A stretch of 64,000 nt of DNA from Amphiscolops sp. MND2022 (GCA_964187785.1 OZ076409.1:40550001-40614000); one strand, 5' to 3'. Counted from the stretch's first letter, positions 3,001-45,240 are shown. Notes: generated by a model not told the origin, from the letters alone. Numbers and translations: made by a program.

Positions 3001-3095
3001 TACTATTTCAAGGGAGGTAGACTTTGACTATGACTTATTTGAAACAAGAAAAGATGATTGGCCGGACACAGCCAAGCGTCTGCCGAATGACGCAA
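1..3095 (+). pseudogene. pol: Gypsy pol (RT, RNase H, integrase) with stops and frameshifts
   Basis: ORF pieces 41-457 (KLRLLVDLR, KLDCSQAYH), 491-841 (YVDDI), 979-1494 (RNase H, ADYLSR), 1679-2413 (H-x4/5-H...CEIC zinc site, QIDLL, TDKG) and 2468-3127. Confidence 0.95.
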
Positions 3096-6000
3096 CCAGG
3101 GATCACTGGATATATTACCAGAGCTAAATTGCTGTTCACGCTCTTTAAACTGGTCCACGGAAGCTTCGCTCGTAGAGTGGGCAATTCCATTGAGCACCAT
3201 TGTCAAGTAAGACTGTGCGGGTAAGAGGACATCAGTAAGGCGACAACGTGGACTCTGGGCATCGACATCTTGGAACTTGATAGCTGGCAACAAAGCTGTC
3301 TCCTCACTTAAGCATAAGCAGCTCAGTCGAAATAGACGACACAAATGAGGCCGATCCTGAAGCTCAGGCATTGAAATCAATAAATCAACCATGTCAGTGA
3401 AACCGTCGGTGGAACCCTTTAAAGCAGAATGAGTATGCTGGAAGTGGTCAACAAACTCCATATACTCATCTCGGCAATCCGCCTCAGAGAAATCTTCAAG
3501 CCAACCGCGTAGTTGGAAACTACGGACTAACGGGACGAAACAATGAGTGGCCTGCTCCATAGAATTGCCCAGTAATATGTGAGGATCGAATGTGGCCATC
3601 CCCTTGACAATGTCGGCATTGAGGCTGATATGGTTCAAAAACTCTTCAAGTGAGAAAACTAGATAACTGCATGCCCGACTAGCAAATTCATCTTAATAGG
3701 TAGCAGCGAGTTCAGTTTTAGCAGCCTCTGTGGTCTTCTGCTCACCCAGTTCCCTCTCGGCCTTAGCTACGGCGGCAGCGTCCAGATCTGTTCTAAGATT
3801 GAGGCGAATCAAGAAATCCTCAGTGGACAACTGACGATGAGTTGCAGTTTGTAACTCTCCCAATCGGGTCCAATCTCCCTCTCGAGGACCGAATTTTGGA
3901 AGCAGGGAACGGTAACCAAGCTTTCTCACGTATTGGTTGAGTTGGCCGTAAGTGAAGAAACCAAAATCGCATCGGCCTTGCAAGCTCCGCTTGAAACACT
4001 TGTTGTCTAAAGACAGAAAAGAATCAGGTAATGCAATTTCAACCAAGAGTAAACACCTTGAGGAGACCTTAAAGGTTTACGGAAGAAAAGAATATGTGGG
4101 TGAAAGATTATAGAATACTAACAATCAGTGACGATCCGCCCAAAGAAGTCTAGCTTGCAAACGAAGAAGTCGTCTGTGATCATGAGCCACTCAAGTCTTT
4201 GGGGCTGTAAAATCAAAACAAAACGTTAGCCTCTTGGATAACCCACCATCAATTACACTAATCGGCAGACAAAGTTGGAACACTTGCATTGTTCTTGGTT
4301 CCTTCCATGCCATAAGTTGGGGCGTGTTTCATCAAGTAGTTTAAGATAGGTTCCCACTGACAGATGATCTCAGAACAAATTGTCGGGATAGCCTTAACTG
4401 GAAGGTCACTTGAGTCGAGAGCCTGGAAGAAAACGGAAAATGTACATACTCATTGGCTCCAGCCATCTTGGATAACATAGTAATACTACCTTAGACAACT
4501 CAGGAGTATGGACGATCCATGGTTCACAATGGCAGCCATTGAGGAACGCAACCAGGTACTTCAATTGAGTGTAAAAGTCAATGCGTACGAAGACACTCCC
4601 CTCTTTACGATGCATCAAGGTAGTCAGTGAGAGCGAGTTGAATCGAAATGGGTACTCGATACCCTTCTTTAACAAGGTGGAATTTTCAAGAGAACGAAGG
4701 GTAGCAAAGGAACAACCAGACAGACAGACGCCCTGTGGCCCAGTTGAGAAAGAAGAGAGAACCTTGGTGATACTCTGTAACTGGCCTACTGCTAAGTCTG
4801 TGGAAGAAGGGTAACGGGTTAACTGACACTTGGTCAAAAGAATCGTTCTTCCAGACTCGGAGTGACATCACACTGAAATTGCCCTTGTACTCAAATTCCA
4901 GTGAGTAAAAGCCACTGGTATTCACGTGCTGTCCAATGTCCTCAAGGCCACGAAGAAAGACGTGGTGGAAGATAGTCTGAAAAGAACACAAAAAAGGTGC
5001 TAGGTTTAGAATTTGACTCTAAAGCGGAAAGGCAAACTACTGAATGATACGTACTGTAAGTGCACTCGACCCCCAGTCCAAGTCTGAGAAGAGATCCTGG
5101 TGGTTCTTGAAGGCACCGACTTCGGTCCACAGGGATTGAAGCACGGAGATGTTGCCGCAGTGTCGAGTAAAGAATACCAACAGGGAAATCTGGGTGCCGA
5201 GACGCACATCAGCCCGGGTAGTGTTACCCCCCATTCTCTCCAGGTATTCGTCATAGAATGGATACTTGGGTCCGATGTTGACGAGCACAGTAGTTTCAAA
5301 GAGGGGCTCTTCTTTCTCCAACTCCATTGCTGTTAAAATATGGCCGTCTTTGGCCCCAACTTCATGTTTGGTGACTCCTGTTATTCTGTCTTTTTTTCCT
5401 AGGTGCTCATATCTCCAGCGCTGATCCTTACGGAGATGAGCCTCCGACTGGTTTGGCCTGATGATTTCGCGTGCTCTTTTGGAGAATATCGACACGTTGC
5501 TCTTACAAATTTGACAATGAAATTTGTATTTATTGTGTACAGGGTCTAGTGGTCCGGTGACGAAGATCCTCGTCCACTGAATGCCCTTGAAATACGCAGG
5601 CTTCGTTACCTTTCCAGGCTTGCTAATCATCCTGCGTCTTTTACGGGGCGGACTTCGGCCAGATGGAGTAGCTGTCGGTGAGGCCCTAATGGTTGATAAA
5701 GGAGCATAATCTCCTTCACTGAATCCTGAACTTGGAATCCCGAATTGAGTTGGACTGAGGGTAGTCTCATTAGGGTCATCAGGGCCCTGAGCGTCCATCA
5801 CTCCGAGGCAATGTGAGTGCTGGGACTCACATCGAAAGTAGCAATTTCTTCATCGAAGGGTAAAGCGCCACTTGTATAACCATCTGTGGAATACCCCTCA
5901 GTGTCTGTCCCCCCGTCTGAACTATCAGACATGCGTTGAGAAGCAGATGTCGTTCGCTGTACAGTCTTTCGGAAATGACTGAGTCTCTGTATTCCCCTGT

Positions 6001-6839
6001 GAGCTGCATGCATCAATAAGGCTTTCGTACCATGCACGGAAGACTGGACTGTTTCTGAAGAAATATTGCGCAAGATGGCATGAAGTTGGGGTTCAGTAAA
6101 TGCAACGGTAGGATGTCCCATAGGAATGGTGACTGGTTCGGCCTTGGCAAAGAACTTACGCAGGATGGCCCGCCCATTAGCTGAAAGCTGTTCTGGAATT
6201 TTTGGTCCAGCGTAGGAAGTACTGGTTTGAGGCCCAACTGGAAGTCCTTCAGCGGTGAAATTTCCCTCATCCTGCGTAGTGAGATTTTCAGACCCAACGA
6301 TACTGGAAGCTGCTCGATTAGGGACTCCTATCACCCCTTCACTGTCAATCAGGTCCTCCACTTCGCTTGTGTCAGTTGCAAAGAAGTCAGAATGGACTGT
6401 ATCCCGTGCAGGTCTATCAGTGGATTCAAGGACATTCGTTGGATCATCACCCTTAGTTTGGGTCTGTGGAATTAAATCGCCCTCAATTGCGTCCGACACA
6501 GAGGCCTTAACATGGGCGTCCTGTTGAAGAACTTCCTGACCAGAGTTCTCAGGGGCATCTAGGAAGGAGACGTCTAAGTTGGCGTCAACTGCTCCAAGGT
6601 TGTGCAAAGGTGCGTTCAGCATATGCAGTAAGGCTCTCTTCTGTGGCACCACTTGAAGAGGAGAACTTGGAGAGTGGACGTGCCTCAGTAGGAGGATTGG
6701 TTTGTTCCACTATTGCCGTGTCTGTCCGTTCGTCAGGGTTTCTGTCTGGCAAGATGTTAGCCGTATCCTGTGCTTCAGTTGTCATTCCTAAATAGTAAAA
6801 GGCAAAGTCAAGCGGAAAGCTTCCTGAATATGAATCCAT
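3095..6839 (-). pseudogene. Antisense 5-exon accessory gene of element 1 (Zn-finger, hAT-transposase-like protein). Exons 6839-5055, 4976-4490, 4422-4288, 4204-4123, 4006-~3095
   Basis: Donors GTACGT, GTAGTA, GCAAGT, GTTAGT with pyrimidine-rich AG acceptors. The spliced translation aligns exon by exon with the element 2 gene. Zn finger CQIC...H present. Contains a few frameshifts and stops. Confidence 0.85.
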
Positions 6840-8043
6840 TTACCGCATTTAAAAATCTTCCGAAAGTAGATAAAGTTGAACACTCGTGAAAACTTGTGTT
6901 ATTGGACAGGAATTACATGAGTTGATTGGGAGTCCTGATCAACCTAATTCAGTTCAGAATGAAACAGGAAGGCAACTTACTCTGAAGTTGATGGAATGAA
7001 GACTCGTGATAGAAAGGGCAAGTTGATCTAGTCGACTGAATTGTTAATGAAGTCTGGAGCAATCCGGCAAAGCTGTAGCTCGATGTAATTGAACAGGACA
7101 ACACTGCGTGAAGAAATTCAGATCTGAGGAGGAAATCAGGAATCGTGGTAGGGAGCTGCCAAGAAGGGGACTGGAAGTCGATTGTCCGGGAAAATCCGAA
7201 AAATCCACAAGGGAAAGGGCGATTGGACACTGAGTCCCAAAAGGAAGATTATGTTAGAGAGGAGTACAAATAAATACAAAGAGAAACTAATTGACTAACT
7301 ATCGGCTAAATACTAATATTGACAATGATTAAATACTGGGAAATACGAGTGAAGAAGGAAATAAAGGAATTTAATATAAACGAATTGAAAGTTGATGGTG
7401 TCAAATTTGGTGTCAAATTTGTTGTTATTTACAATTTGCAGCGTTATGTGGATAAAGTCTGCCAGCGGTATCTACATCATTTCATTTATTTCGAAAACTT
7501 TGTTATTTTTGAGAATTATTTCATGATTTTATCATTATTTTATTTAATTTCAAGGTCATTTTATATTATTCTTTATATGGACTTACGACCTTGGGAAGCC
7601 ATTTTAACTGGGGAGGAATTTTGCTGCATTTCTATTGGGTGATCAGATTGTTGGTGGACGGCGTGGCTGATTGCCATATCTTCACCTACTTGAAACTCTC
7701 AAGTACCTGATGAGTGTTACTAAACACTTGAAGTAACACTCCTAGACTGAGAGTGCTAGCATAACTGATGATGATCAACAAAGAAATTGTCGGCAGATAT
7801 GAAGGGCCTTAGCGGCTTGATGAAAGGTTTTAGGAAGGAACATTTTGTTTTTGAAAACTTACCAGACGGGAAACGAAACAGAAAACACGGGAAGAAAACT
7901 CGTGATTTGGTGAAAATCCCGTGAGGCGGTGAAGAGAAGGATCGCCATTCGTATGATTTTAACCGCTCAAGTCAGCTGCCTCCGAACCCCAAAATACCAA
8001 AGTCCTTTTCAAAATTGCCAAAAAAGTAATAAAAGCTAGATTC
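6840..8043. promoter_or_regulatory. Putative bidirectional internal promoter between the antisense gene and ORF3 (element 1)
   Basis: Divergent ATGs at 6839(-) and 8044(+). The motifs GTCTGCCAGCG, GAAGCCATTTT and ATTTTAACCGCT recur in the same order in element 2. Confidence 0.55.
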
Positions 8044-8865
8044 ATGTCTGACGTTTCTGAGACATTCCCTATGGACTTCCTGGGCGCTGCTCAATCTGAG
8101 GGAGCTCCTGCAAAAATATACATTTCAAGCGATGAAGATGAAAGGATGGATTCCTTCGACGGTGACTCAGTGGACGACGTCTACGTCTCATCTGAAGAAG
8201 AAACGCTGGATATCGAAATTATAGCGAGATGCATAGAGAGACAAATGACCGAACCCAGTAAAAGTCCCAACTCTGAGACATCAGGTACCCAGGCTAGGTG
8301 CGGGACACCCAAGCCCGATTTGCCGCCCTTCCCTACGTTTACACAACAGTTTTTCAACCTGGGTATGGGCAACGGACCTATTGGACGGGATGACCGAGTT
8401 AGACCCAGTCATCCCATTAATATTTGCAGAGACCTACGACCTAATATTGATACCCCAATGCCGCCACCGCCAGAAGATAGGGGACCAGCCTACGAGCAAG
8501 ATATACCGACTTGCTTTTACTCGGCGAGCTCTACTTCAGTCGAGACTGTGGCAAATCACTTCAATGATATGACAGTGTCTGGAAACGCTGGCCTGTTGGG
8601 CTGCTCAGACTGCGTAGTTTGTGGGAAGCCAGATCAACAAATACAGGATGAAGCAGTCAATGACTTTCTCAACAAAACAGTTGTTCCAGGCGAGACGTTA
8701 GCTGAAACCGAGAGAAGAAAGAGAGCTTTCCTAGACGGTATGGCTGCTGGCACGTTTTGACTCATGCCAGGGGGAGTGTCGCAGGCGGCCGCCTGCGATG
8801 GTAAGTGGTACACAGTCGCATATAGTTATTGCAGGGCCCTACCCGGAACAATTCCACTAGATTGA
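8044..8865 (+). pseudogene. ORF3, acidic accessory protein that crosses the PPT into the 3' LTR (one in-frame TGA at 8758-8760)
   Basis: The 238-aa ORF continues in frame as LMPGGVSQAAACDG...PGTIPLD*. SQAAACDG and PGT are conserved, with synonymous changes, at the start of element 2's LTR. Confidence 0.7.
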
Positions 8866-10031
8866 GGAAATACAAGCAGTTGGGCCAAGAAGTCCAAGGC
8901 AGAAATAATTAAAACTTTTACGATAAAACTGGTTTGTAATACTGGTTTGTGTTATTATAGCATGTAATTGCATTCCGGTGGTAGCTATATTACTTGTAAG
9001 GTATATTTTAAAACATGTAAAAATAATTAGATGTGCTGTGAATTGGACACAAGGCGTACAGGCAGAGGAAACGCGTTCAGAGTGTTTCCTCTCCTGTCGC
9101 CGTGGACAAGCAGTCCAAATTAAGTTCAACCAATCACATTTCATCATTCAACTGAGCACTGCCTTCTTTGTCATAGAAGTGCAGTTGTCCCTTAAGGGCG
9201 AACGAGGCGCTGTAACGCCTTTGATGTGCCAATAGGTCATTACGTCATGTAACCCGCAAACAAGTGATGCTATTTTTAGATTAGTAATTATCTATTTTTA
9301 GAACATGACAGTTATTTTTTCGATAGTCATGCAGTCTATCATATATATACCCGGGACTCTTGGACCGGGGGACACAATTTGATGATATATGCAGCCTATC
9401 AAATGGTTTTATTCTTTTTGCAAGCCTAAAGATAATTAATTCTTACCCCTTGCAATTGTCTCTTATGCCTTCTACAAGGAAACAAAAGGCAAAAGCTAGA
9501 AAGTCAAGGGAAGTGGACATGATGTCTGACTTTGAAAATATGGACGTAATGATAGGAAATGAAAACACTAATCCTATTGAACGCGAACTTTCAAACATGA
9601 TCGGAAATGGGGTAAATGGTCAAGACATTGAGTCCAATCCCCAATCTTCGAGGTATGAAACACATGAAAATGAATTTGGGCATTATGCTCATGAAAATGC
9701 AATTCCTTGCAAGACAGGGTTCAAGAGACGCTGGAAACCTTTACTAGCGAGTTCAACATGAGACTTTCGCAAGAAATGGATTCAATGATGTCATTAATGC
9801 ATAGTCAGATAAACAGGGCGATTAGTGCAGCGATAACTGAGAGAGTAATTCCAGAGATTTAAATTATAGTGAGTTCGATTTCATCCTCCGGGAATCGAGA
9901 CACTGAGGCCAGTTCGTCTCCCAATAGCCAGGAAAACGCTGAAATGAACAATGGGTTTAGAAACAAAATTGCGAAAAAGGACTCACAGTCTACTGGTGAC
10001 CTTAGAACACCTAGAGACAGCAGTCCTTACA
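8777..10031 (+). repeat. 3' LTR of element 1 (~1.26 kb), containing the ORF3 C-terminus and the gag N-terminus (ATG 9465)
   Basis: PPT immediately upstream and TG...CA ends. Homology to element 2 starts at TGTCGCAGG. The gag-like MPSTRKQKAKARKS...GDLRTPRDSSPY stops where element 2's LTR ends. Confidence 0.8.
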
Positions 10032-11180
10032 GATTGTTCGTTGTTGGTTGCCACCCAATGTAAAATATCTTGAAACTCTTGCCAAGATCTTGAATTTTCC
10101 TGCCAATTCCCGTTTCCTCTTGAAACCCTTGATAAGATCTTGAACTATCTTGAACCGCTAAAAATCTTAAAATTCTTGAAGTTTCTTAAGGTTCGTGAAT
10201 TCTTAGGTTTTGAAAAATGTCAAGTACATAATCTCATACATAAAAGAACAATATTAAATTGTAGATTTGTTTGAATTTTTTAGGAAGTTTATCCTCGTAT
10301 TTTGGGGCTTTTTGCCAGTTTTTAGGACTTTTATTTTGACACACTTCTCATTGAGAAATTAAATTACATGTTTCTACAAAAAATTAATCATCGGAACTCT
10401 GCGGAAGAACCTCTATCTTATGAATATAAAATATGATTTGCAAAAAAAAACAGAAAATTTGGGAAAAGTTGCGGTCAAGATTTTAGGTTTCCTTTCTCAT
10501 TTAGAAATTGGTGCCGAATTTTTTAAACGCTGCTGAGAGATAAATATTCCTTGCCATGTGTGAGAAATATTCTTTGCTCTTTAATAGTCAACATTTGATT
10601 GTTTCTATTCTGGACTTCACTGACATACAGAGGGATGTGAAAAATTCGGTACTGATTTCTTTCGTACATTTTCCCAAGAAACGTGTTTGATAATTTTTGA
10701 TCTTGAACTATCCAATAAACAATATGGATCAACCTTACTTTACAATTGATTTATTTCGCTTTCCACCAACCCTTAGGACTAATGTTCGAAAACTGTGAAC
10801 GATACCATGTTAAAGTTTGATCATGGTATAAACTATCACTATAGTGTGGTCATAGTTTGTTCACATTGGGAAAGCAAGACAAAGTCTATGATTTTGGGAC
10901 GACAAAGCATGTTAGAACTTTTTTTGCAAAGATTCGATGTCACTTAGCACGTTTTTCTAGGAAATTGGCCTGCAACACATATTTTCACAAACTTTTTGCT
11001 TCCAAGTCGAAAAGTTCAAGGGTTGTGCTAACGAATACTATTCTAGCTGATAAGTTGCTAATCTGATGAAGAGATAGGTTGACAAATCTAAATTAACTGC
11101 ACTCTATCAAGACCATGTGGCAACTGATGTTATATGCATTTTGTGTCTTGATATAATTATGTTTGTCCACAACAATTCTG

Positions 11181-11682
11181 TTTTTAGTCGGGGCTTTTCT
11201 TAAGAAAAGAGCCCGACTATTACAGTCACTCGTTTTTTTTTCTTTTTTTTATTTAAGACAGACTCGAAGCGACGAACGTTAAAATTAACGTTCAACTACT
11301 AAATACAGTACTACTAAAATACTGGCAGCGCATTTGAGATAGTGCAAAGGGTCCCCCCTTTCAGTAAGTCCATTTTTATCGTAAGATACAAAAGAGGACG
11401 AGACTATAGGGTCCCCCCTTTGAGTTTTTTTCGGCACTGTGCGACTTTTTTTTCGAAAATTTTTTTGTCCCCAAAGGGTCCCCCCTTCGAGTTTTTTGAT
11501 ATTTTGCAACGAAATGTATGTTAATAAATCCAGAAGAGTCCCCCTTTTACATTTATCGGCACTATGCGACTTTTTTTGAAAGAAAAAAATTTTTCAAAAA
11601 TTTCAATTTTTTTTCCAAAAAAAATCTTTTGCGCTTTTTGAGCCTTAGATATGGCGCCGACTTTAGACGTTCCCGTCTTGTT
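11181..11682 (+). mobile_element. Helentron-associated-like non-autonomous element (HINE family A)
   Basis: 5' TTTTTAGTCGG...CCGACTA hairpin, internal AAGGGTCCCCC and CGGCACTGTGCGAC subrepeats, 3' GCGCCGACT plus stem-loop AGACGttccCGTCT and TGTT. Many copies in the window. Confidence 0.7.
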
Positions 11683-27901: not shown

Positions 27902-27999
27902 ACATATGTAAATGTGATATGCCTAACAACTCCGAACGATAGAACGCTCAGGAGATGAAAGACAATCACAAAGAAAAACAAATGTCACTCGTCCGAGAA

Positions 28000-33393: not shown

Positions 33394-36300
33394 CTTCGCC
33401 ACGACTCCAATATAACGAACTAATATCCGTCCGCCAATATATCAGGTCGGATCCTCCAACAAAAACCTTTCATCAATACAACAGCAGTTGATGGGTTATC
33501 CCTCTGTTGTCTGGCAGCAACAGATGGACAAAGCTATCATCATTACCTACAACAATACCCATTTATTCCAAAAACCAATTCCGGTTTGGGACCCTGACTA
33601 TACAACCATCTTCACTACCCGATTCAGGCCCATTCCCCTGATCGACGATTACAATCCAACATACATCGACCCAGACTATGGCAGAGATCCCTATTGGGAC
33701 ACTTAGATTTATAATCAGGATCTATTGCAATTTCAGTTTGTTCTAGATGACATTGAACACTACAACAAAACAGTCCATGAGAACCCTCCAATTATCCACA
33801 ACCAGAAAACACGAGCACTAATTGAAAACTGGCAAATGAACGATGGTACAAACCACCCAGTGATCCCTAACCCCTTGGGGATCGAGAATCTTGAAAATTG
33901 TGCTGAATCAATACCACAATCGCTTTTAGACGGGAAACAATTCCAAAATGTACTCATTACCAAAGATGGTGAACCAGATTGTATACCCCTGTCAACCAAC
34001 ATTAACCGCAAGTGCAAGAAACGCATGCTTTACTTCCCAATGGACCTTGGGGAATTGACCATTGATAGACTCATAGACACTGGGGCGCTGTCCAGCGCAA
34101 TTCCTGAAATGGACCTCCGGAAAATCCGCCTTCTATCTCCGCAATCTGTCATCCGGGAAGGTCCGCCTCCTATCTTCCAAATCATGGTCGCTAATGGGCA
34201 ACTGGAAACTCCCAAGAGTACCATAGAGCTCAAATTCGAAGTTGGTGACATTGAGTTCCATGAAATTTTCATAGTAATGGAACATTTGACAGGACCGATT
34301 ATTTGACTAATGTTCCTTCAGAGAAATCATACAGTCCTGGACATGAGACAAGGAACTTGAATTTCCCGTTCTTTTCAATGCAGCTCAAAACAGCTGATAA
34401 TAAATATTCAAATGTGCTAGAACCAATACTCAACCCCACTGAGATAAACATTCCTTGGCATTTTACAACCAAGTCACCTCCTACATGAAGAATGGGATAT
34501 AACATTTTGCCCAGCCTTGCTCACCCTAAATGACGTCAGTATGTTGATACCAATGAACAATTTCACAGACCACCCTTACAAACTCAAAAAAAACTTCACA
34601 TTGCCAATTTTTCTGTCATGACGCCGGAACAAATGAAATACGTCAAACCAATAGACCCGGCATCAACATGGCTTTTCCTTCAACAAGACCAAGAGCAAGA
34701 GGGACATTATGTCAGCAGCCTCATCTAATAAAAATCCGCAAAACCAAGAAAATTACTGGTTTCCAACCCCAGAAAACCCAGGCAACCCAGAAGAACATAC
34801 ACCAATACAGAAAAGGACCTTACGAGATTTACAAGCCTTACAGGACCTGGAGACCCTTGATCCTACAGAAAATCCAGAATCTCGGGCGAAGTTCCTAGAA
34901 CATTTTGACTGGAAAGATTTCACCCTGACTCCTGAAGACAAGGTGAAAATAGAAGACTTATTAGTGAAATTCCATGACATCTTCGCCCGACACAGATTCG
35001 ACATAGGCATGAATGAGGAATATAAGGTAAAACTTACACCTAAAGACGATTCCCCAGCCTATAGCCAAAGCCTCCCAGCACCAATTAACCTAAGGGAGGA
35101 CATATTAGTCGAACTAGCAATGCTTAATAAATATGGAATAATAACGACTCTACCATTTTCGAAAGACGCCAGTCCAATCTTTGCTCAGAAGAACCCGAAT
35201 GGGAAACTGCGACCCCTGGTTGATTTGAGAAAAGTCAACAACCTAATCTCCGACGATTATATCAATAATAATCACCCAGTCAGTACGCTAGTCAACGCTG
35301 CCAATATATGGCAGGCAAGAAACTCTTTTGCAAATTGGACTGTTCACAAGCGTATCATTGCCTCCAGATGGCTGACCAACGTTCAATCGAAATGTTAGCA
35401 TTCAACTTTGCAAGCCGCACATTTGCCTACCTACGTTTGGCACAGGGCCTTAGTCGGTCACTGTCCGCATTTTTAAGTTTCATGAGGGAATACCTTGACA
35501 AAGTCATAAAAGTGGATCAGTGTGCCCAGTACGTGGACGATATCGGCATCGCCGCCAACGATGCTGATCACCTCATAGCTTGGAAACCTGAGAGCAACGT
35601 TCAAATGCATTCAGGAAGCTGGCCTCAAGTTGACCCACTTGGAGTCAAATTAGTTATACCACAAATGTCACTTCGGTGCAAAAGAAATTGATTTTCTTGG
35701 ACGAACAATTACCCCACAAGGCGTCAAACCCCAGAAACAGAATGTAAAAAACTTTCTGGAAAAAACCAAATTCCCGAAGTCGAAAAAAGTTTTACAACGC
35801 TATTTGGGATTCTTGAACTACTACAGAAATTATGTCCCGAGACTTTCAGAACGCCTTGCCCCATTCTACAAGATGCTGAAAGGTGACGAAAAGGTCATAG
35901 TATCGAAAGAATTAGTGCAACAAATTGAAAAAATCAGTAAAGCACTCGACAAATGTTGCGATTTGGCCCTCCAACAACCTATCCCAAACAAGCAAATTGC
36001 ACTACTGACTGATGCATGTTTTGGTGCAGCAGGGTATGCGGTCTTAATGGAATACGATCCAAGTCAGAAATTTACGTCACTCAGAAAGTCGTATGCTCAG
36101 GTGGCATATGGATCAAAAACCTTCACTCCGGGACAGATCAAGATGTCAATTTATGCCAAAAAATTTCTTGCAATTTACTTTGCATTTAAAGAATTTGGGC
36201 ATATCTTCTGAGGTGCCCCAAAGCCGGTCATCATCCTTACAGACAACAAAACTGCCACGCGATTTTTTCAAACGAAAATAATACCCCCAGCGCTGTGGAA

Positions 36301-38544
36301 TGCTTGTGATTATGTGATTCAGTTCAATTTTGTCATAGTGCACATCCCGCGGGCACAAAATACAGCTGCCGACTATCTGTCCCGTTTGGAAGCGGACCCG
36401 AAGGACAAATTAGTCATGAAGATCCGCGAAGATGTACAAACGCTACCAATCGAAATAAACGTCCAATCCGCAGGGGTATCACAAGAGGAACAAATCTTCT
36501 ACACAAATGATGACGATGAGACAGAGGAACAATATTGGGCAAGGAAAGAAGCAATCAGGAAAAATCCAGCTATTGATGAGCCCACTGTTACAATACAAAC
36601 TCTGTCATTAAATCTGGTCGAGCAACAAAGTGACATACAAGTCCGATTAAGGAACACCAACCAGATCGTTGTCGAGCAATCCAAAGATGAAGTGCTACAA
36701 CAATTGAAGGCAAAACTCCTTCATGAGGAGTATTCAGAGAACCTACTGCAGCAGGATGCTCGATACAGACATTATGCAAGCAATCTGGAACGAATTGTAC
36801 CTAAGGATGAAATCCTGACGAGGCAATACTTTGACGAAACAGGGAACGTTAAATACTATCGAATTTTGCTCCTGCAACACTTACTCCAGGAATTGCTTCA
36901 GTCCCTTCATGGGACAGCACATAAACATCCTAGTATCTCAAAAATGTTGCAGGAAATTCGACAGAGGTTTTACTACCCTAGCATGGCTAAACACGTCAAA
37001 AAGTGGGTAGAAGGGTGCGAACAATGTGCCAGAGACAAAAGAGTCCCTAACGCAACAATTACACCTGAACTGCTAGATTTGCCCGAATGGGACCTTGGAC
37101 CTGAAGATGCCATGCAGATCGACCTATTGCCGAATCTTCCCCCAAGTGGAGGCTATGAAAACGTCCTAACAGCAATTGACGTATTTTCCAAATATCTGTT
37201 CGCATATCCCCTTACGGACGCAACAGCGATCAATGTAGCAAAAGCGCTCATTGACATCATGACCAAGCATGCATACTTACCGACAACACTTACTTACTGA
37301 CAAAGGTACTGCATTCACTTCTACAATTATTGCGGAAATTACGCAATGTTTGGGCATAACACTCAAATGTGCAACAACAAAACATCCGCAAACAATTGGG
37401 AAATTAGAGCCGACACATGCCTCATTGAAAACAAACCTCAAAATAGCATGCGGAGAATACCGCCGACAATGGCACAAATACTTACCATTAGCAGTACTAA
37501 ATCATAATACTAGTTACCATGCCAGCATCGGTTGTGAACCGACGAGAGTATTTCATGGACGGTTTCCATACAATATCTTGGATCACAAGCTAGGAAACAA
37601 TCCAAACGAGCAGATTAATCCTACAACCGAATTTGCAGAAGGATTACAAAACCGGACAAAAATCTTGATTGACAAAACAAAGCAGAATATTATGCAGTCG
37701 TATATCAAGTACAAAGAGTATTACGACCGCAAAGCAAAAGCCGCCCCATTAAAGGAGAATGATTACTGCTTTGTCTTACAGCCGAAAGCAGATCATGAAG
37801 AATCAAAATTCCAATCCGCGAGTACCGTTGGGTTGGACCATAAATAGTCCAGAAAGTTTTGCCCAATGAAAATTATATAATACGACGGATCAATACAAAC
37901 AAAACTCAAATATTGCATCGGATTTGCCTCAAAAAGTTTATCCCCAATCAACCGCTCGAGGACAATTTCCGAGAACAGCGTTTACAGCCTGATGAAGAAA
38001 TTGTTATTCCGCAAGATGACTTATACATCATAACGTGGGAGACAGATTTTGGCGCGCAGCTAGTTACACGAGAACACGATCCTATTCCGACTAGCTTGCC
38101 GAATGGCGAACAGCCGAATGCGGCAGAACCGATCCAAAGTGACTTAGATGGGAATGAAGCGGATTACATAATCACGAGAGACGAATTCAATCAAGCCGAC
38201 CGTGCGTCGCATAACCAGAATGAAAGATTGAAAGATGACGTCACTAAAAGAAGTGAAGCTACTAGAAATGAAGAATCTGATTGGCCGAATCCGGCCGTTT
38301 ACCCAAAAATCAAGAAAAACCTTTGCCGGATACGGCAGAAAGACTGAAAAACGATGCAAACTTTTCAGAAGGAAATTCAACGATTGAAAATGATGCAAAA
38401 AATTCTCCAAACAGGGGCGATGATATTATCGTGCCCAAAATATCGCAAGATGATGTTAGAAACGAAAATCTGAGTCCTAGAGGCGGGAGATATAATCTCA
38501 GACCTAATCCTAATCCAAACTACTCAGAAGACTTCAGATACTAA
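33390..38544 (+). pseudogene. pol: Gypsy pol (protease, RT, RNase H, integrase), decayed
   Basis: LIDTGA protease, YVDDI, LLTDACF, HGTAHKH...CEQC, QIDLL, TDKG, and the C-terminal GRYNLRPNP motif. Confidence 0.95.
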
Positions 38545-38690: not shown

Positions 38691-41600
38691 CTAGGTGTAC
38701 ACAGATACATATGTACAATTCGTTTTTAGTAGTGCTGGGCTGGGGAGATACAGTAACTGAAGAGGCGGAGGGCCGAGAAGCCCTTCGTTCCATCTTTCTT
38801 CAGCGACAGAACTGGCATCTCCAGAATCAATTTGGACAGAGACCTTCTCTGGAACAGATTTCGCAATACGGCAGGAAACCAACAAGGACTTGTAAATCTT
38901 CGAGCGCCCAAAGGTGTCAACATATGTCCAAGGATCATACTCTTCGGCAAAAGCGGAACGCCCAAAGGAGGAAGAGAGTAGAGAAAAGCTAGCTAAGTTG
39001 TCATCATTACTGCAGAAGGCCACAGAATCACGAACATTGGCCAGATAACTTTGACAGGGGAGAATGACGTCGGTAAAGCGATTCTGACGCCCCGCGGTAG
39101 TAACTGCACCAAGCGTAACGCCAGGAAAGACTGGACTCACGGAAGTTGCACACAAACAGCACAGCTTGAACAAGTGGAACAGGTGTGCTCGGTCCTGCAA
39201 GAATTCAAGACCAACCAGGAACTCTATCAGATCTGAGGAGGTGCTGGTCAGATCGAAATTGGGGCCATAGGAAGTCCGTAAATGGTCCAGTAGCTGCATG
39301 TACTGGTCCCGGCACAAAGACTCATTGGCGCTGGAGACCCAAGAGCGGAGAGCAAAGGTACTATACAGCATGTCAAAATGCTTCAGAGCAACGTCCATCG
39401 GCCTTTTAAACATGATGAATGGGTCGAAGGCAGCTAACCCTTTCAATATATTGCTCGTCAGCCCAACTCGTTTCAAGATCTCATTGATGAGAAACTGTAC
39501 ATATAGCTGGCTGTCCTTGACGAAGGCTGTCTTTACAGTTTCTGCGGTGGCCTGTATTGCTGGACGCTCGGACTTTTTTCCGAAGTGGATGCATCTGCTC
39601 GAGCCTTGCTTGCAGTCCCCACACGGTTAGACAACTTGAGCTTGACCAGGTACTCATCTACAGGCAAAAAGGTCCCTTCACTGGTATGGAACCGGAGGAG
39701 CATGAACCAGTCATTCTCTAGGGGAACTGTGTCGGGGGTGTAGACCCGGGAGCATAGTAAAATCACGAATCGGCTAACCTCCGCGCAGAGGCAGAATGAG
39801 GCGTCACGCCTGTATTGGAGATTCACAGTGAATCTGGTGACTTATAGAAACACAAAACAGTGTCAAATTACGGAATGTAACCTAATACCATCTCCCTACC
39901 GAAATATACATACAGTCACTGACAAGTTTGCGAAAGAATTCCAGTTTGACGGCAAAGAACTCGTCAAAAATCAAGGACCACTCGAAGCTCTGCACCTGGA
40001 ACAAAAGTCACATTTACTTCGGCACATAAAGTCTGAGGGACAGGCAGGGACTAGAGAAACCCATTTATGACTGAACCTGCCTAACTGAAATGATACAAAT
40101 GGTTTGATGGGAGAATAACCCTATTACGAGATCCTTGACCTTCTTGAAGCGGAGCGTGGGCCGTCAAGTAACGCTGCACAGACTTCCACTCGTCTAGCAA
40201 TTCTTGACAGACAATAGGGAGAGTTTTGACGTCGAGTTGGCAGGTGGTGTTAGCCTATAAATCCACAGGGTCGAATGAATTTCAAATAGTGGATTCTGAG
40301 ACCCACTCCCCCCTTTTTTTTACCATTAGAACCACATGAAAAAGGGAATACACCATTAGATTACTTACCCTAGTGAGTTCTGGATGACGCATCACCCAAT
40401 CTTCAATGAGGGAACCACCCAGCGAGACCATCAGGGCTTGCAACACTGAGAAGAAGTCTATGTGACCAAAGACAGAATAACTCGTCTTCTGCATGAGCCT
40501 TGCTAGTGACAGTTGCTCAAAACGAAAGCAACTCTGAACTCCTTGGGCGAAATACTCGGACTGGTCAATTGTTTTGGCAAATTCAACCAGACATCCCGAG
40601 AATGCGACCATATCGGGCCGTGTGGAGACTGCTGACAGGAATCGAGCAAGTGATCCCAGTTCCCCGGTCGCATCAGTCGCCGGGAGAGAACTTCGGCAGA
40701 CGTAGACTCTACAAAGCTCTAGGTTCTTCCAGAATTTGACTAACATGTATTTGTTGGTGCCAACTGTCTCGAACTCGACTGAGAAACACTGTTGGGAGGA
40801 CACTTGCTCAGCAATGTCATGTAGCGCACAAACGAAGAAATGTTAAAATATGGCCTGAAATGGAACCTAAACCTCAGTACCTGGTGAAGTTTAGAAGAAA
40901 TAGTTTGGCTTAGAAAGCATTACTTACAGTGAGTCGTTCTTCCTCCCAATCGAAATCAGTGACAGTGGCTTGATGATTGGTGAACGATCCCATCCGAGAC
41001 AGAGAATAGGGAGAGTTTTGACGTCGAGTTGGCAGGTGGTGTTAGCCTATAAATCCACAGGGTCGACTGAATTTCAAATAGTGGATTCTGAGACCCACTC
41101 CCCCCTTTTTTACCATTAGAAACACATGAAAAAGGGAATACACCATTAGATTACATACCCTAGTGAGTTCTGGATGACGCATCACCCAATATTCAATGAG
41201 GGAACTACCCAGCGAGACCATCAGGGCTTGCAACACTGTGAAGAAGTCTATGTGACCAAAGACAGAATAACTCGTCTTGTGCATGAGCCTTGCTAGTGAT
41301 AGTTGCTCAAAACGAAAGCAACTCTGAACTCCTTGGGCGAAATACTCGAACATTGGCCAGATAACTTTGACAGGGGAGAATGACGTCGGTAAAGCGATTC
41401 TGACGCCCCGTGGTAGTAACTGCACCAAACGTAACGCCAGGAAAGACTGGACTCAGGGAAGTTGCACACAAACAGCACAGCTTGAGTAAGTAGAACAGGT
41501 GTGCTCGGTCCTGCAAGAATTCAAGACCAACCAGGAAATCTATCAGATCTGAGGAGGTGCTGGTCAGATCGAAATTGGGGCCATAGGAAGTCCGTAAATG

Positions 41601-44600
41601 GTCCAGTAGCTGCATGTACTGGTCCCGGCACAGAGACTCATTGGCGCTGGGGACCCAAGAGCGGAGAGCAAAGGTACTATACAGCATGTCAAAATGCTTC
41701 ACAGCAACGTCCATCGGCCTTTTAAACATGATGAATGGGTCGAAGGCAGCTAACACTTTCACTATATTGCTCGTCAACCCAACTCAATTCAAGATCTCTT
41801 TGATGAGAAACTGTACATATAGCTGGCTGTCCTTGACGAAGGCTGTCTTTACAGTTTCTGCGGTGGCCTGTATGGCTGGACGCTCGGACTTTTTTCCGAA
41901 GTGGATGCCCTCTGCTCGAGCCTTGCTTGCAGTCCCCACACGGTTAGACAACTTGAGCCTGACCAGGTACTCATCTTCAGGCAAAAAGGTCCCTTCACTG
42001 GTCTGGAACCGGAGGAGCATGAACCAGGCATTCTCTAGGGGAACTGTGTTGGGGGTGTAGACCCGGGAGCATAGTAAACTCACGAATCGGCTAACCTCCG
42101 CGCAGAGGTAGAATGAGGCGTCACGCCTGTATTGGAGATTCACAGTGAATCTGGTAACTTATAGAAACACAAAACAGTGTCAAAATACGGAATGTAACCT
42201 AATACCATCTCCCTACCGAAATATACTTACAGTCACTGACAAGTTTGCGAAAGAATTCCAGTTTGACGGCAAAGAACTCGTCAAAAATCAAGGACCACTC
42301 GAAGCTCTGCACCTGGAACAAAAGTCACATTTACTTCGGCACATAAAGTCTGAGGGACGGGCAGGGACTAGAGAAACCCATTTATGACTGAACCTGCCTA
42401 ACTGAAATAATACAAATGGTTTGATGGGAGACTAACCCTATTACGAGATCCTTGACCTTCTTGAAGCGGAGCGTGGGCCGTCAAGTAACGCTGCACAGAC
42501 TTCCACTCGTCTAGCAATTCTTGACAGAGAATAGGGAGAGTTTTGACGTCGAGTTGGCAGGTGGTGTTAGCCTATAAATCCACAGGGTCGAATGAATTTC
42601 AAATAGTGGATTCTGAGATCCACTCCCCCCTTTTTTTTACCATTAGAACCACATGAAAAAGGGAATACACCATTAGATTACTTACCCTAGTGAGTTCTGG
42701 ATGACGCATCACCCAATCTTCAATGAGGGAACCACCCAGCGAGACCATCAGGGCTTGCAACACTGAGAAGAAGTCTCTGTGACCAAAGACAGAATAACTC
42801 GTCTTCTGCATGAGCCTTGCTAGTGACAGTTGCTCAAAACGAAAGCAACTCCGAACTCCTTGGGCGAAATACTCGGACTGGTCAATTGTTTTGGCAAATT
42901 CAACCAGACATCCCGAGAATGCGACCATATCGGGCCGTGTGGAGACTGCTGACAGGAATCGAGCAAGTGATCCCAGTTCCCCGGTCGCATCAGTCGCCGG
43001 GAGAGAACTTCGGCAGACGTAGACTCTACAAAGCTCTAGGTTCTTCCAGAATTTGACTAACATGTATTTGTTGGTGCCAACTGTCTCGAACTCGACTGAG
43101 AAACACTGTTGGGAGGACACTTGCTCAGCAATGTCATGTATCGCACAAACGAAGAAATGTTGAAATATGGCCTGAAATGGAACCTAAACCTCAGTACCTG
43201 GTGAAGTTTAGAAGAAATAGTTTGGCTTAGAAAGCATTACTTACAGTGAGTCGTTCTTCCTCCCAATCGAAATCAGTGACAGTGGCTTGATGATTGGTGA
43301 ACGATCCCATCCGAGACCACAGATTCCTCAGCACCATCAGGTCTCCTTGAGTCTTTGCAAAATCTCCCACGAGACAGAGTTGAGTTTTGGCTCTAGATTC
43401 CGTTGTGACTAGTGCTGTGGTGGAACCCTTGATGTAGTCATCATAAAAAGGGAGTCTTTCTCCAATGTCCACCAGCTCCTCATTGATGAAATGGGGAAGT
43501 TCCTTTGCAAGTTCCATCTTAGTTAGGATCCTCCCGTTGGCTCCTCGAACCCGATGTTGCACCTTACCCGTGATGGGGTCTGTACTTCGCAGGTGCTCAT
43601 ATCGCCAACGCTGGTCGCGACGTAGGTGTCGCTGGGTACGGTGATGCCTGAGAATTTCATATGGGGCTTTGGACTTGATGGAAAAGTTTTTTTTGCAGAT
43701 GTGGCACCAGACCATCAAGGGGTTGTGGACGGGATCAGCGGGTCCCGAGATGAAAGATCTGGTCCAACCTGTTTTCGAGAAGAACTCCTCTCTCATGGGA
43801 ACTCCTCGTCTCGTAAGCCTTCGGTCACTTTTCCGTTTCTTGAACTTAGAGGCGGTACGCGTAATGGGCCGAGCTTGCTCCCTCAACTCCTGTAGAGTAG
43901 TGTCTTGGCTACTGAATTCTGACACGTCGGGCTCGTTCTGCTGTTGGCTGAAGGGAGTTCGGGTTTCGTCTGGATTTTTCGGAGGAACAGTGGTTTTCTT
44001 GAAGGTTATCAAATCCATCTCTGTCGCGCTATCACTCTCCTCTTAGTATGAAGACTCCCCAGTGCCCTCTGAGGACGAGTCAGGTTGACGTGCCGCAGCT
44101 GTTGCTCCTTCTTCGTCGGATTCCGTCTCACTCGAGCCGCTAGGAGACCTTCGCATAGGAGTCTGACATCGGCCCTTGGAGTGGAAATGAGCGGTGCGGG
44201 AAGGTGCAACGGTTGGGAGAACCCCGAACAGCATCTATGACCATCCGCTCCATGGTGGAAAATGACCGATTAAGGGTTTCTTCTGTCGAAACCCTGAGGA
44301 GGTGGTATATCAGGGGCTCAGTGAAGGCAACGGTGGAGTGTCCCACGGGGAGACGTATGGGAGCGGCTTCGTCGAAGTACTCCTTCAGAATTGCCCTGCT
44401 TCGACCAGAAAGGTCTGAAAATCTACTTTGGGTAGGCTGTGGATTGGGAGCGGAATCCTTGCTGGTTCCATGGATTAACACCTCGGAGCTCGTCTCATCC
44501 CCGCCTTCAGTCCCTGACTCAGTGTAGAAGGGATTAAAGCCATATAGGCAACAGGGTTGATCTGACTGGCCTCTTCAATTGCCTTTTCTTCATCACTCTG

Positions 44601-45240
44601 CCCTCCTAAGAAATGGACCTGAGGAGAATCTCCAGGCAAACCTGGCGCGTCACAAATCGATGAGGCGTTCTCGTCGTCCGTTCTGGAATGTACTCCACTG
44701 ATGTTGGCCGATTTAGGGTCAGTTCTGTCCCGCAACTCAGGTAGTTGAGACTCCGACGTGATGATGACGTGTAGTGCCGACTCTAAGGCTGACAAATCAG
44801 CTTGGCAAGTTTCTTCACCTCCCTCAGACGAAATTGAGGTACTTGACCTCCGGATTTCGGGGACATCAGGCGCCACTGGAGTAGCTTCTTCGGCAGGGGG
44901 TACATTGCCATTCGGACCTGAAGTTGAAGTGCCAACTTGCTGTGGAGCGTGCTCTTGCTGCTGCTCTATTTTTCAAACCATAGCTTCCGCATATGCGGTA
45001 ACGTCGGTACTGCTACCCTGGCTGTTAGCTGGACTGTCTTTTTCAATGATTGCTGGTGAATGAACAGGAAGCCGATCAGTACTCTCTACTTGAAGCCCTA
45101 TAGGTTTCGAAAGACGAACCTCCAGAAGTGGCATGGACATTGGCTTGGGACGTGGTTGGTTCAGCAGCGTTCTTTTTCGGAAGATTTTCTAAACGAATGG
45201 GAATGAAACTTAGCGGTGTACTTCCTTGATATGAATCCAT
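38691..45240 (-). pseudogene. Antisense 5-exon accessory gene of element 2 (Zn-finger, hAT-transposase-like). Exons 45240-43245, 43171-42686, 42571-42437, 42312-42231 and 42157 onward; exon 5 is completed in the duplicate copy 39840-~38691
   Basis: Donors GTAAGT, GTAAGT, GTTAGT, GTAAGT; acceptors TTTCAG, TTATAG, TTCCAG, TATAAG. CHIC...HHRTQRH finger. The start MDSYQGSTPL matches element 1's MDSYSGSFPL. Confidence 0.85.
39031..43317. repeat. Internal tandem duplication with partial triplication: 39031-41000, 40998-41348, 41347-43317
   Basis: Near-identical ~1.97-kb copies offset by ~2317 bp. The middle 350 bp is a third copy of the intron-2 region. Confidence 0.92.

Follow-up and report, generated by a model that had tools for sequence, protein, structure and literature searches.

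An antisense five-exon gene with four conserved introns in a Ty3/Gypsy retrotransposon family of Amphiscolops sp.

A large Ty3/Gypsy retrotransposon family of Amphiscolops sp. MND2022 very probably carries, on the strand opposite to gag-pol, a spliced gene that is under selection and recombines between lineages. The same high probability applies jointly to the other parts of this explanation: two elements found in the DNA studied here would be decayed members of the family, and its full form would be 5' LTR (which includes the gag start), gag, pol, the antisense five-exon gene, ORF3 and 3' LTR, 16.3 kb in total. The window, i.e. the whole stretch of DNA analysed, comprises 64,000 nt (GCA_964187785.1 OZ076409.1:40550001-40614000), and the two Gypsy elements within it were compared. 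First-look candidate copies of the family number in the thousands, intact and recently inserted ones among them.

Copy A, a complete 16.3-kb element, is a young insertion that encloses the antisense gene between its LTRs. These LTRs of 1,846 bp (aligned repeat 1,847 bp, 99.946% identical) have the ends TGTCGC...CGACA (TG..CA) and a 5-bp target-site duplication, AGACG. Directly after the 5' LTR lies the PBS-like sequence TGGTGACAGGAG, a candidate PBS. As the ends, the PBS-like sequence and the target duplication fit, the repeat was taken to be a single long LTR that includes the gag start; its reading as a compound of one LTR and part of another element was rejected. The LTR terminus of the family is conserved in both window elements. 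Pfam placed RVT_1 at 136-301, RT_RNaseH at 393-491, Integrase_H2C2 at 689-744 and rve at 765-860 (residues of L031:1-3744). Paired LTRs with TG..CA ends, a target-site duplication and the pol order RT-RNase H-integrase are thus all present, as in Ty3/Gypsy elements. The gag ORF matched DUF1759 with 24.9 bits, slightly below the cut-off of 25.4. ORF3, a second conserved accessory ORF on the sense strand before the 3' LTR, gave nothing above noise against Pfam.

An earlier sequence-only reading had described the two window elements within one span, 3095-45240, which ends at the antisense ATG of element 2 and also takes in ~20 kb of unrelated DNA separating them. Both elements reach further than the antisense gene: element 1 runs to ~10,033 with ORF3 and the 3' LTR, and element 2 begins with its 5' LTR at 30,506. 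The 5' portion of element 1 lies beyond the window start. The revised features of element 1 are as follows.

2..3115, plus strand: pol (C-terminal part of RT, RNase H, integrase), from tblastn with copy A pol and ORFs
3003..4006, minus strand: exon 5, from homology to intact copies over 3096-3995
4007..4122, minus strand: intron 4, 116 nt, GT..AG, phase 1
4123..4204, minus strand: exon 4, 82 nt
4205..4287, minus strand: intron 3, 83 nt, GC..AG (GCAAGT)
4288..4422, minus strand: exon 3, 135 nt
4423..4489, minus strand: intron 2, 67 nt, GT..AG
4490..4976, minus strand: exon 2, 487 nt, one surplus base (frameshift)
4977..5054, minus strand: intron 1, 78 nt, GT..AG
5055..6839, minus strand: exon 1, ATG at 6837-6839, frame broken
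6840..7030, minus strand: conserved non-coding block 5' of the antisense ATG, from alignment; candidate promoter or 5' UTR
7963..8859, plus strand: ORF3, second accessory ORF, extending into the 3' LTR
8777..10033, plus strand: 3' LTR, start set by the conserved terminus TGTCGCAGGC, end approximate

The features of element 2 are as follows.

30506..32279, plus strand: 5' LTR, beginning TGTCGCAGGC and ending ..GACA, followed by PBS-like TTGTGACAGGAG
31690..33072, plus strand: gag, from tblastn-type homology to an intact copy
33381..38541, plus strand: pol with frame breaks, from ORFs and homology
38691..39841, minus strand: pol-proximal duplicate, full exon 5, from ORFs and homology
39842..40999, minus strand: pol-proximal duplicate, intron 4 through intron 1 including exons 4, 3 and 2
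41159..41347, minus strand: partial third copy of exon 2, codons 100-162
41322..42157, minus strand: distal exon 5, cut short at codon ~279 and with one in-frame stop
42158..42230, minus strand: intron 4, 73 nt, GT..AG
42231..42312, minus strand: exon 4, 82 nt
42313..42436, minus strand: intron 3, 124 nt, GT..AG
42437..42571, minus strand: exon 3, 135 nt
42572..42685, minus strand: intron 2, 114 nt, GT..AG
42686..43171, minus strand: exon 2, 486 nt
43172..43244, minus strand: intron 1, 73 nt, GT..AG
43245..45240, minus strand: exon 1, ATG at 45238-45240, frame breaks in the N-terminal part
45241..45430, minus strand: conserved block 5' of the antisense ATG

Both antisense copies in the window are dead. 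Element 1 has the frameshift in exon 2, an in-frame stop in exon 5 (3693-3695) and a broken exon 1, in which the CCHH finger has its first His substituted; its 3' LTR holds a gag start at 9465. Element 2 suffered a 2.3-kb duplication and has broken exon 1 frames. This complex internal duplication has a period of ~2,316 bp, and as a result two copies of exons 2-5 are present, with a part of exon 2 in a third copy; the block 39842..40999 ends with the final 24 codons of exon 1. The gag ATG of element 2 (31690) lies inside the 5' LTR. ORF3 and the 3' LTR are missing from element 2, and there is an assembly gap at 46350-46549.

All eight introns proposed for the two elements have spliceosomal ends (GT-AG in seven, GC-AG in one) at homologous codons and are pyrimidine-rich at their 3' ends, and the phases 0,0,0,1 are indeed shared. 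Where intron 3 of element 1 has GC, the related copies L075-L078 have GT. Matching internal exon lengths had also been claimed; the 135 and 82 nt are equal, whereas the 487 versus 486 nt of exon 2 reflect the 1-nt frameshift in element 1. The peptide pairs quoted for the two elements were recovered from the spliced translations. When spliced at these coordinates, element 2 reads through from exon 1 to exon 5 in a single frame, interrupted by one stop within exon 5, and element 1 loses the frame within exon 2 at the 487th base.

The same four positions, phases and exon lengths were found in three intact copies from other sub-lineages, with GT-AG ends in 12/12 introns. Four copies of the element-1-related lineage (L075-L078, read by eye) contain the same four introns with GT..AG. 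In 30 further copies mapped automatically, all four introns were GT..AG in 21, and precise intron loss was seen in none. The introns were found in all copies examined, among them one with nearly identical LTRs that is flanked by a target-site duplication. Since sites, phases and exon lengths are conserved and the frame is regained only after splicing, we infer that splicing removes four GT-AG introns from the antisense transcript. As a separate observation, there are distant homologues without intron 3 or without intron 4.

A product of ~1,200-1,300 aa had been predicted, and the intact models agree: 1,284-1,290 aa in 3/3 full copies of different sub-lineages, with the same four introns. The N-terminal half of the protein is fast-evolving and of low complexity and is followed by a basic patch, an invariant finger C-x2-C-x16-H-x5-H (CCHH) and a region of ~800 aa, in which the last exon encodes a domain predicted to be all-helical. 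The predicted exon-5 model consists of helices only (pLDDT ~90 over residues 30-245); AlphaFold of the part from the finger to exon 2, for which a naturally occurring copy with a read-through intron 1 was used, reached pLDDT 45 and was unusable. No Pfam family was matched at E ≤ 1 by any exon or by 29 exon-5 homologues, and neither kinship to TRP28 (PF04195) nor to any other family was found in this set. The exon-5 profile against PDB sequences had a best E of 1.8, and a Foldseek search of PDB and viral structures with the exon-5 model gave no match at E ≤ 0.001. A wide comparison of this model with VIA-align reached at best Z 6.0 with helical look-alikes; the structure search with the finger-to-exon-2 model (pLDDT 45) stayed at Z ≤ 4.4. 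Among metagenome contigs, 123 pattern matches were obtained and none was confirmed as a relative. In public protein sets the ~1,290-aa product appears as separate ORF fragments: the best 150 of 418 exon-5-domain representatives were all ≤418 aa, and no proteins of 733-2,090 aa with this domain were found there. Owing to this fragmentation and the lack of longer proteins, repeat and gene annotation pipelines likely miss or mis-call the gene.

It is possible, albeit doubtful, that the protein derives from a hAT transposase (Buster/FAM200/ZBED5/GTF2IRD2-type) that was captured as a DNA-binding or targeting factor and is probably catalytically dead. Such an origin would be compatible with the explanation given above and would refine it; what it predicts is a finger of the BED type, a core with an RNase-H-like fold that, as in Hermes, is interrupted by a helical insertion domain, and a C-terminal domain made of helices. 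The finger spacing C-x2-C-x16-H-x5-H presumably resembles that of a BED finger, and the ZBED2 finger was matched structurally with Z 3.4. The ten best family-bearing language-model clusters for the finger-to-exon-2 part were FAM200/ZBED5/GTF2IRD2/EPM2AIP1/DUF4371 (0.76-0.82), and the neighbours of exon 5 included FAM200-GTF2IRD2-like and Dimer_Tnp_hAT clusters (0.90), but these Atlas scores are at or under the 'lead only' level. For each of the two halves, the longest structural alignment was that with Hermes transposase (8edg_A), and the two are co-linear: residues 350-609 with 1-286 of the exon-5 model (Z 5.5, rmsd 6.4, 190 aligned) and residues 23-566 with 11-376 of the N-terminal model of pLDDT 45 (Z 4.0, rmsd 17.9, 177 aligned). 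However, these Z-scores are tied with those of unrelated helical proteins, and acidic catalytic residues are not evident. Moreover, hhalign (A1, A2) against seven hAT transposases of the same genome returned probabilities of 0.3% and 1.4%, and Dimer_Tnp_hAT (PF05699), zf-BED and DUF4371 were unmatched at E ≤ 1 in every exon and the 29 homologues. Elsewhere in the same genome the PF05699 model did match, at 150 of 150 scored places; a search of this genome with DUF4371 at 1e-10 returned none. The broader scenario, in which a class I super-family domesticated a DNA-transposase-derived (class II) gene, with BED-like finger, hAT/FAM200-like body and spliceosomal introns, as its own accessory factor, seems rather unlikely. 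In it, the antisense position would protect the introns from erasure by reverse transcription, the gene would recombine between lineages as an exchangeable cassette, and the distant homologues without intron 3 or intron 4 would reflect intron gain or loss within a mobile element.

The trees of RT and of the antisense gene, whose congruence had been at issue, agree in their deep split and conflict significantly among close lineages. In both genes element 1 stands apart, with 73-78% pol identity and 33-42% antisense-protein identity to the rest. In pol, L034 groups with c6/c20, whereas the antisense gene places it with L033, and both placements are strongly supported. AU tests of the conflicting trees gave p = 6e-4 and 3e-68, for clades that were named after the identity matrices had been seen. 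The conflict among close lineages is in keeping with recombination between elements and not with separate insertion. At 4-fold sites, pol differs by 0.29-0.34 versus 0.54-0.66 in the antisense gene, and the neutral divergence of the antisense module is 2.5-4 times that of pol. Together with the conflicting trees, this higher divergence points to an exchange of the accessory module among co-existing lineages by recombination. The divergence could instead reflect region-specific hypermutation, e.g. by editing of a sense/antisense RNA duplex before reverse transcription, so that the module mutates faster than pol and no exchange occurs. The sharp changes in divergence at the borders of the coding body and the 4-fold sites being ~twice as different as in pol would suit this alternative, which we nevertheless regard as improbable: it leaves the switch of L034 unexplained, and the 240-nt 3' spacer, expected to be transcribed as well, is 93% identical between copy A and L033.

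Within the exons, dN/dS proved to be far below 1, ranging from 0.04 to 0.14 over ~1,290 codons. For L033-L034, dN was 0.131 and dS 1.94 (ratio 0.068; 0.041 for exons 2-5), and copy A compared with the others showed a dN of ~0.29 with saturated dS. Decay of copies after insertion can only raise these ratios. Introns had p-distances of 0.35-0.49 (~40% diverged) between copies. The antisense gene is thus evidently under strong purifying selection, and the low ratios against saturated synonymous and intron divergence indicate that it is protein coding. Regulatory antisense transcripts are described for several retroelements (PMC7264820, in its accessible part), and the antisense protein is a predicted one; nevertheless, it is very unlikely that the unit acts mainly as RNA, i.e. 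as a source of dsRNA or small RNA that regulates the element with the frames being incidental, as such a role would leave a reading frame across four introns unpreserved, and neither the low dN/dS nor the exactly conserved intron phases and exon lengths would be expected from it.

The proposal that the gene is a heritable part of the element was borne out by its fixed geometry with pol and by the complete LTR element with target-site duplication that encloses it. The RNase H-integrase segment of pol lay convergent with exon 1 at the predicted place in 15/16 sampled exon-1 copies, which were the best-scoring matches and not a random draw. Co-located matches showed one geometry in 35/35 pairs: exon 1 and pol were spaced by 3,692-3,747 nt in 22/22 and exon 5 and pol by 1,488-1,530 nt in 13/13. 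In the window, the spacing of exon 1 to pol is 5,933 nt because of the duplication in that copy. Pol was absent from the expected place at L035 and L070. The gene flanks, up to ATG and stop, are conserved element sequence, and a block of ~190 nt 5' of the antisense ATG is conserved even in element 1 (alignment). From this conservation we infer that the antisense promoter lies in the block; poly(A) signals (AATAAA/ATTAAA) were not found in the 420 nt past the antisense stop. These results support the antisense gene as an integral component of the element. That it is an independent nested insertion, a DNA transposon or transduced host gene in a few Gypsy copies, is extremely improbable: its introns and zinc finger resemble those of host genes or transposons, the trees of pol and the antisense gene disagree and the expected pol is absent in one of the 16 sampled copies and at L035, but position, orientation and spacing are fixed in the other 15 copies and all co-located pairs, the gene also occurs in lineages with only 73-78% pol identity, and conserved element sequence and a complete element surround it.

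For the antisense gene as part of the element, the following course is the most likely. Transcription from the 5' LTR would give a sense-strand genomic RNA that contains the four introns as reverse complements, and since the spliceosome does not recognise these, the introns would be copied into each new insertion. The antisense gene would be transcribed from integrated copies by its own promoter in the ~190-nt block, and splicing of this transcript at the four GT-AG introns would lead to the protein of ~1,290 aa. This protein may be an accessory factor that binds nucleic acids in the nucleus and acts in trans for the element, be it in the control of transcription, in targeting or against silencing by the host. 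The chances of such a role, our best guess, are about even; the function is a guess because no known family or fold matched convincingly. A role of this kind has been proposed for the antisense aORFs of plants and the antisense genes of retroviruses. The accessory module would then be swapped among co-existing lineages via recombination.

As their genome goes through an RNA stage, retroelements should contain few introns. The family would represent a natural, long-lived way round intron loss for a large, host-style gene that is antisense and strongly selected, and indicates that a retroelement can stably own an intron-containing gene of this kind. It may serve as an animal counterpart of the unexplained plant antisense ORFs that exceeds them in size and conservation and lends itself better to tests, as a system for asking how a retrotransposon benefits from a trans-acting nuclear protein, and as a case in which accessory modules appear to be shuffled between lineages.

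The organisation had been put forward as unfamiliar from described Ty3/Gypsy clades. In this respect the claim was too broad: plant and fungal elements have antisense ORFs in the interval from pol to the 3' LTR, according to the consulted sections of PMC7264820 and PMC11963269, namely maize Grande gene23, rice RIRE2, Silene Retand (TRP28), Phaseolus PvRetro13 and Botrytis Boty. What stands is the multi-exon form, as a search of the open full-text literature yielded no description of an LTR retrotransposon whose antisense gene has several introns. As in the aORF-3R definition (Vicient and Casacuberta 2020), the gene lies between pol and the 3' LTR opposite to gag-pol in 15/16 copies; the plant and fungal aORFs occupy the same place on the opposite strand in most copies of a lineage, according to the same excerpts. 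For the Grande antisense ORF an own promoter was shown, and aORFs are suspected to be nuclear or DNA-binding regulators (PMC7264820, PMC11963269, as far as excerpted). The word 'intron' is absent from the available text of both sources. In contrast to these aORFs, the gene described here has an animal host, ~1,290 aa, five exons and four spliceosomal introns, and the likeness is one of organisation alone.

HTLV-1 HBZ (for which a spliced isoform exists), HTLV-2 APH-2 and HIV-1 ASP are likewise minus-strand protein genes of reverse-transcribing elements. They are short, share their DNA with sense genes or the LTR and contain no more than a single intron, which starts in the 3' LTR, whereas the gene here is a 4.2-kb transcription unit in its own space with four internal introns. 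Retroviral antisense proteins have nuclear regulatory function (PMC11963269, excerpted text). LTR retrotransposons of bdelloid rotifers are, like the present family, animal LTR elements with added genes, i.e. extra ORFs beyond gag and pol that are common to several element types; in the accessible text of PMC5408684 they are not described as antisense or intron-bearing ('intron' occurs 0 times and 'antisense' for small RNAs only). Nuclear group I introns, too, are mobile and contain antisense homing-endonuclease genes interrupted by spliceosomal introns (PMC9548176, available part). They belong, however, to another class of element with another type of mobility, without reverse transcription of a full-length sense RNA.

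A parallel in the logic of intron removal is engineered. Retrotransposition indicator cassettes (e.g. Ty1his3-AI) exploit that the strand of an intron decides on its removal from the genomic RNA before reverse transcription. Their reporter is antisense, as is the gene here, with a single intron that is sense-oriented and is therefore spliced from the genomic RNA, its loss marking the retrotransposed copy. The introns of the present family run with the antisense gene and would therefore remain unspliced in the genomic RNA, so that every new copy retains them. In contrast to the cassette, this arrangement is natural, long-lived and, judging from its exons, under selection.

The two GC-richer blocks of the window (1–10 kb and 30.5–46 kb) each carried Gypsy-type gag/pol on the plus strand, with integrase and RNase H domains, and in both copies (element 1 and element 2) a series of minus-strand open reading frame fragments lay downstream of pol. 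The sequence-only reading had joined these fragments into a five-exon gene with four introns at homologous codons in the two elements. All eight introns listed in that reading showed spliceosomal ends (seven GT..AG and one GC..AG, at 4205–4287) and a pyrimidine-rich 3' end. Once they were removed, exons 2–4 measured 487/135/82 nt in element 1 and 486/135/82 nt in element 2, where the frame ran on from exon 1 into exon 5, and the same positions recurred in intact copies, so that the proposed gene structure was borne out. The relevant features are listed here by window position, with their counterparts in copy A (the genomic stretches L031, L032, and L036) and in two further stretches, L033 and L034.

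Features of the two elements
8777–~10033 and 30506–32279: LTR (copy A: L032+L031+L036)
6839, minus strand: start codon of the antisense gene, element 1
45240, minus strand: start codon of the antisense gene, element 2
6840–7030 and 45241–45430: non-coding blocks upstream of the antisense ATG (L031: 8213–8400)
7963–8859, plus strand: ORF3 (L031: 9157 onward; L033: 9187–9999; L034: 9161–10000)
38691–43400: internal duplication of the antisense gene body in element 2, period ~2,316 bp, copies 96–99% identical
40998–41351: third short copy within this duplication

The window copies are both defunct. In element 1, exon 1 is broken, exon 2 carries a 1-nt frameshift, and a stop codon interrupts the frame at 3693–3695. 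Frame breaks also disrupt exon 1 of element 2, whose exon 5 contains one stop; the complex internal duplication has given this copy two sets of exons 2–5 and a third, partial exon 2. Its 3' end is missing beside an assembly gap (200 N at 46350–46549); the assembly itself, rather than a deletion, may account for the absent ORF3 and 3' LTR. A degraded second LTR-type retroelement with numerous frame breaks lies elsewhere in the window (23719–28000, minus strand). It looks BEL/Pao-like and matched DUF5641, aspartic protease, and the integrase domains H2C2 and rve. Beyond the elements, AT-rich DNA held dispersed and tandem direct repeat families (11354–11682, 48813–49263, and 57497–59405) with units of 100–215 nt that were 66–85% identical.

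When the exon-1 peptide of element 2 was searched against the eukaryotic assembly of 1.07 Gb, all 142 scored places matched (7,633 first-look candidates), many with an open frame of 676–694 aa. The element-1 peptide gave another 142 scored places (7,067 candidates), many of them open for 600–717 aa. Copies were sampled from the best-scoring matches and fetched from three sub-lineages (A, L033, and L034). The antisense gene was intact in all three, with exons of 1,986–2,007, 486, 135, 82, and 1,163 nt, twelve of twelve introns with GT-AG ends and lengths of 69–116 nt, and predicted products of 1,284–1,290 aa, in agreement with the spliced gene of ~1,200–1,300 aa proposed from the window. As the differences in intron length from lineage to lineage are not divisible by three, only splicing would restore the frame. 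Automatic mapping of 30 further loci found the four GT..AG pairs complete in 21 and exons 2–4 free of stops in 19. At least one splice site deviated in the other nine loci, window element 2 among them, by mutation, indel, or mis-alignment, and clean intron loss was found in none of the 30. In a lineage with 69% identity to element 1, the four copies L075–L078 had the same four intron positions with GT..AG ends, including a GT at the site where element 1 has GC. Element 1 shares only 33–42% identity with the others in the antisense protein and 73–78% in pol; the four intron positions have therefore been kept across a deep split.

Copy A is a complete insertion of 16,311 bp in the order LTR, gag, pol, antisense gene, ORF3 (sense), LTR. 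Its LTRs, with TG..CA ends, are 1,846 bp long and show 99.946% identity over an aligned repeat of 1,847 bp; a PBS-like TGGTGACAGGAG follows the 5' LTR, and the insertion is flanked by a 5-bp target-site duplication, AGACG. The pol frame of 1,738 aa contains RVT_1, RNase H, H2C2, and rve domains. Coordinates from three independent genome searches (exon 1, a pol segment, and exon 5) were then compared, and every co-located pair showed convergent orientation and fixed spacing: 3,692–3,747 nt between exon 1 and pol in 22 of 22 pairs, and 1,488–1,530 nt between exon 5 and pol in 13 of 13. The window copy, lengthened by its internal duplication, has an exon-1/pol distance of 5,933 nt. As the three lists are samples of best matches, unpaired entries are uninformative. 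Linkage was tested directly on 16 exon-1 matches spread down the list, for each of which 1.5 kb was retrieved where pol was predicted to lie; the pol segment was present on the opposite strand in 15 and absent in one (stretch L070), and L035 is another truncated copy. The antisense gene is part of the element, as the sequence-only reading had held, and not an independent insertion.

The LTR of copy A is unusually long and contains a TATA-like box. The gag ATG and the opening ~590 nt of the gag frame fall within it, so gag starts inside the LTR. The 5' terminus of the LTR, TGTCGCAGGC(G/T)GCCGCCTG, was kept in three lineages; no purine-rich tract was evident directly before the 3' LTR. Three identical-scoring exon-1 matches on another contig (G000:C12:14845913-14875645) were spaced by exactly 14,465 bp, the length of the element minus one LTR, which suggests tandem arrays of LTR-sharing elements.

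Just upstream of the antisense ATG, a stretch of ~190 nt contains blocks, terminating in ACTTCCGGAAGATTTCTAAT.GCGGTAAAATG, that element 1 and the four other copies compared have all kept. These blocks, which include the palindrome TTCCGGAA, were conserved even between lineages whose proteins are ~35–40% identical, and we infer that they would form the gene's own promoter or 5' UTR. A canonical poly(A) hexamer was not found in the 420 nt after the antisense stop. Between this putative promoter region and the 3' LTR lies ORF3 (~280–320 aa, sense strand), which ends ~86 nt inside the LTR and is common to A, L033, L034, L035, and element 1. Its motifs are KIAKKxI, IYISS, PMSPP..ERGPS, and C.VCG, and its dN is 0.22–0.34 with dS saturated; the frame does not open with an obvious start codon, and no family match was found. 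ORF3 is a putative second accessory gene.

The substitution pattern indicates that the antisense gene is protein-coding and under selection. For the spliced coding sequences of L033 and L034, dN was 0.131 and dS 1.94, a ratio of 0.068 (0.041 for exons 2–5 and 0.131 for the low-complexity N-terminal part); these values are upper bounds because copies decay neutrally after insertion, and they are well under 1, as expected of the maintained gene that had been proposed. Between A and either L033 or L034, dN was ~0.29 with dS saturated. Introns diverged at 35–49% of aligned sites. The N-terminal ~480 residues are of low complexity and fast-evolving. They are followed by a basic patch, an invariant C-x2-C-x16-H-x5-H finger (its first histidine lost in element 1), and DQRWR[YF]E. 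Modelled with 29 homologues, exon 5 was predicted with confidence as an all-helical domain (mean pLDDT 74, ~90 over residues 30–245). The exons of the antisense gene had no match in the Pfam set searched, and for exon 5 neither PDB sequences nor a Foldseek comparison of its model gave one.

An origin from hAT/FAM200-type transposases is possible on weak leads, though rather unlikely. Atlas neighbours of both halves were FAM200/ZBED5/GTF2IRD2/hAT clusters (scores 0.76–0.90), and the longest structural alignments, co-linear for the two halves, were with Hermes transposase (Z 5.5 and Z 4.0); however, these Z-scores are matched by proteins with no relationship to it, the model of the N-terminal part is of low quality (pLDDT 45), and hhalign against seven hAT transposases of this genome was negative. 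hAT transposons are numerous in this genome (the hAT dimerisation domain gave 2,215 first-look candidates, with 150 of 150 scored over the cut-off), and several transposase frames of 597–697 aa are open.

Homologues of the exon-5 domain were found in public protein sets as 418 cluster representatives, down to 27% identity. The best 150 of these are all ≤418 aa, and so are single-exon calls. For one representative, P0130, no sequence of this genome exceeds 42% identity, which places members of the family in other genomes as well. In the exon-5 homologue alignment, intron 4 is absent from P0130 and P0229, where exon 4 passes directly into exon 5, and intron 3 is absent from P0181, where exons 3 and 4 are continuous; the gene family has therefore lost or gained introns. 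All three are distant homologues, apparently from other genomes.

Nucleotide identity was measured region by region along the aligned copies.

Identity between aligned copies
pol: 77–94%, minimum near the pol 3' end
240-nt spacer after pol: 93% (A–L033)
antisense unit, exons and introns: 53–80%
block upstream of the antisense ATG: 94% (A–L033)
ORF3: 55–80%

The drop at the antisense unit was abrupt. At 4-fold degenerate sites, 0.29–0.34 differed in pol (dS 0.51–0.66) and 0.54–0.66 in the antisense gene; neutral-site divergence of the accessory module (antisense gene and ORF3) was 2.5–4 times that of pol, with sharp borders at the conserved flanks. Congruence of the RT and antisense-gene trees, raised in the sequence-only reading, broke down among close copies. 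In trees of nine copies, L034 grouped with the copies c6/c20 for pol (support 98/96) and with L033 for the antisense gene (support 100/99), and AU tests, for which the groups were named only after the identity matrices had been seen, rejected the swapped groupings (p = 6e-4 and 3e-68). The simplest reading would be that co-existing lineages recombine and that the accessory module behaves as a cassette; region-specific hypermutation in place of recombination, which the higher neutral-site divergence of the module might also suggest, is the weaker alternative beside the two conflicting trees.

The plant elements Grande, RIRE2, Retand (TRP28), and PvRetro13 and the fungal Boty are on record as carrying extra ORFs in antisense orientation in the interval from pol to the 3' LTR, and a nuclear role is suspected for these ORFs (PMC7264820, PMC11963269). 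A mussel Steamer-like element has been reported to have an antisense mRNA (PMC10974842), and rotifer elements to contain extra ORFs (PMC5408684). Introns are not mentioned in this context in the text searched of these four reports. The organisation had been put forward as unrecognised, which holds in part: antisense extra ORFs and the survival of antisense introns are known, and a full-text literature search yielded no multi-intron antisense gene in an LTR retrotransposon. That retrotransposition spares antisense-strand introns is an established principle. Antisense-reporter indicator cassettes are the counterpart of the present arrangement: their intron is sense-oriented and lost on retrotransposition, whereas the introns of the antisense gene survive.
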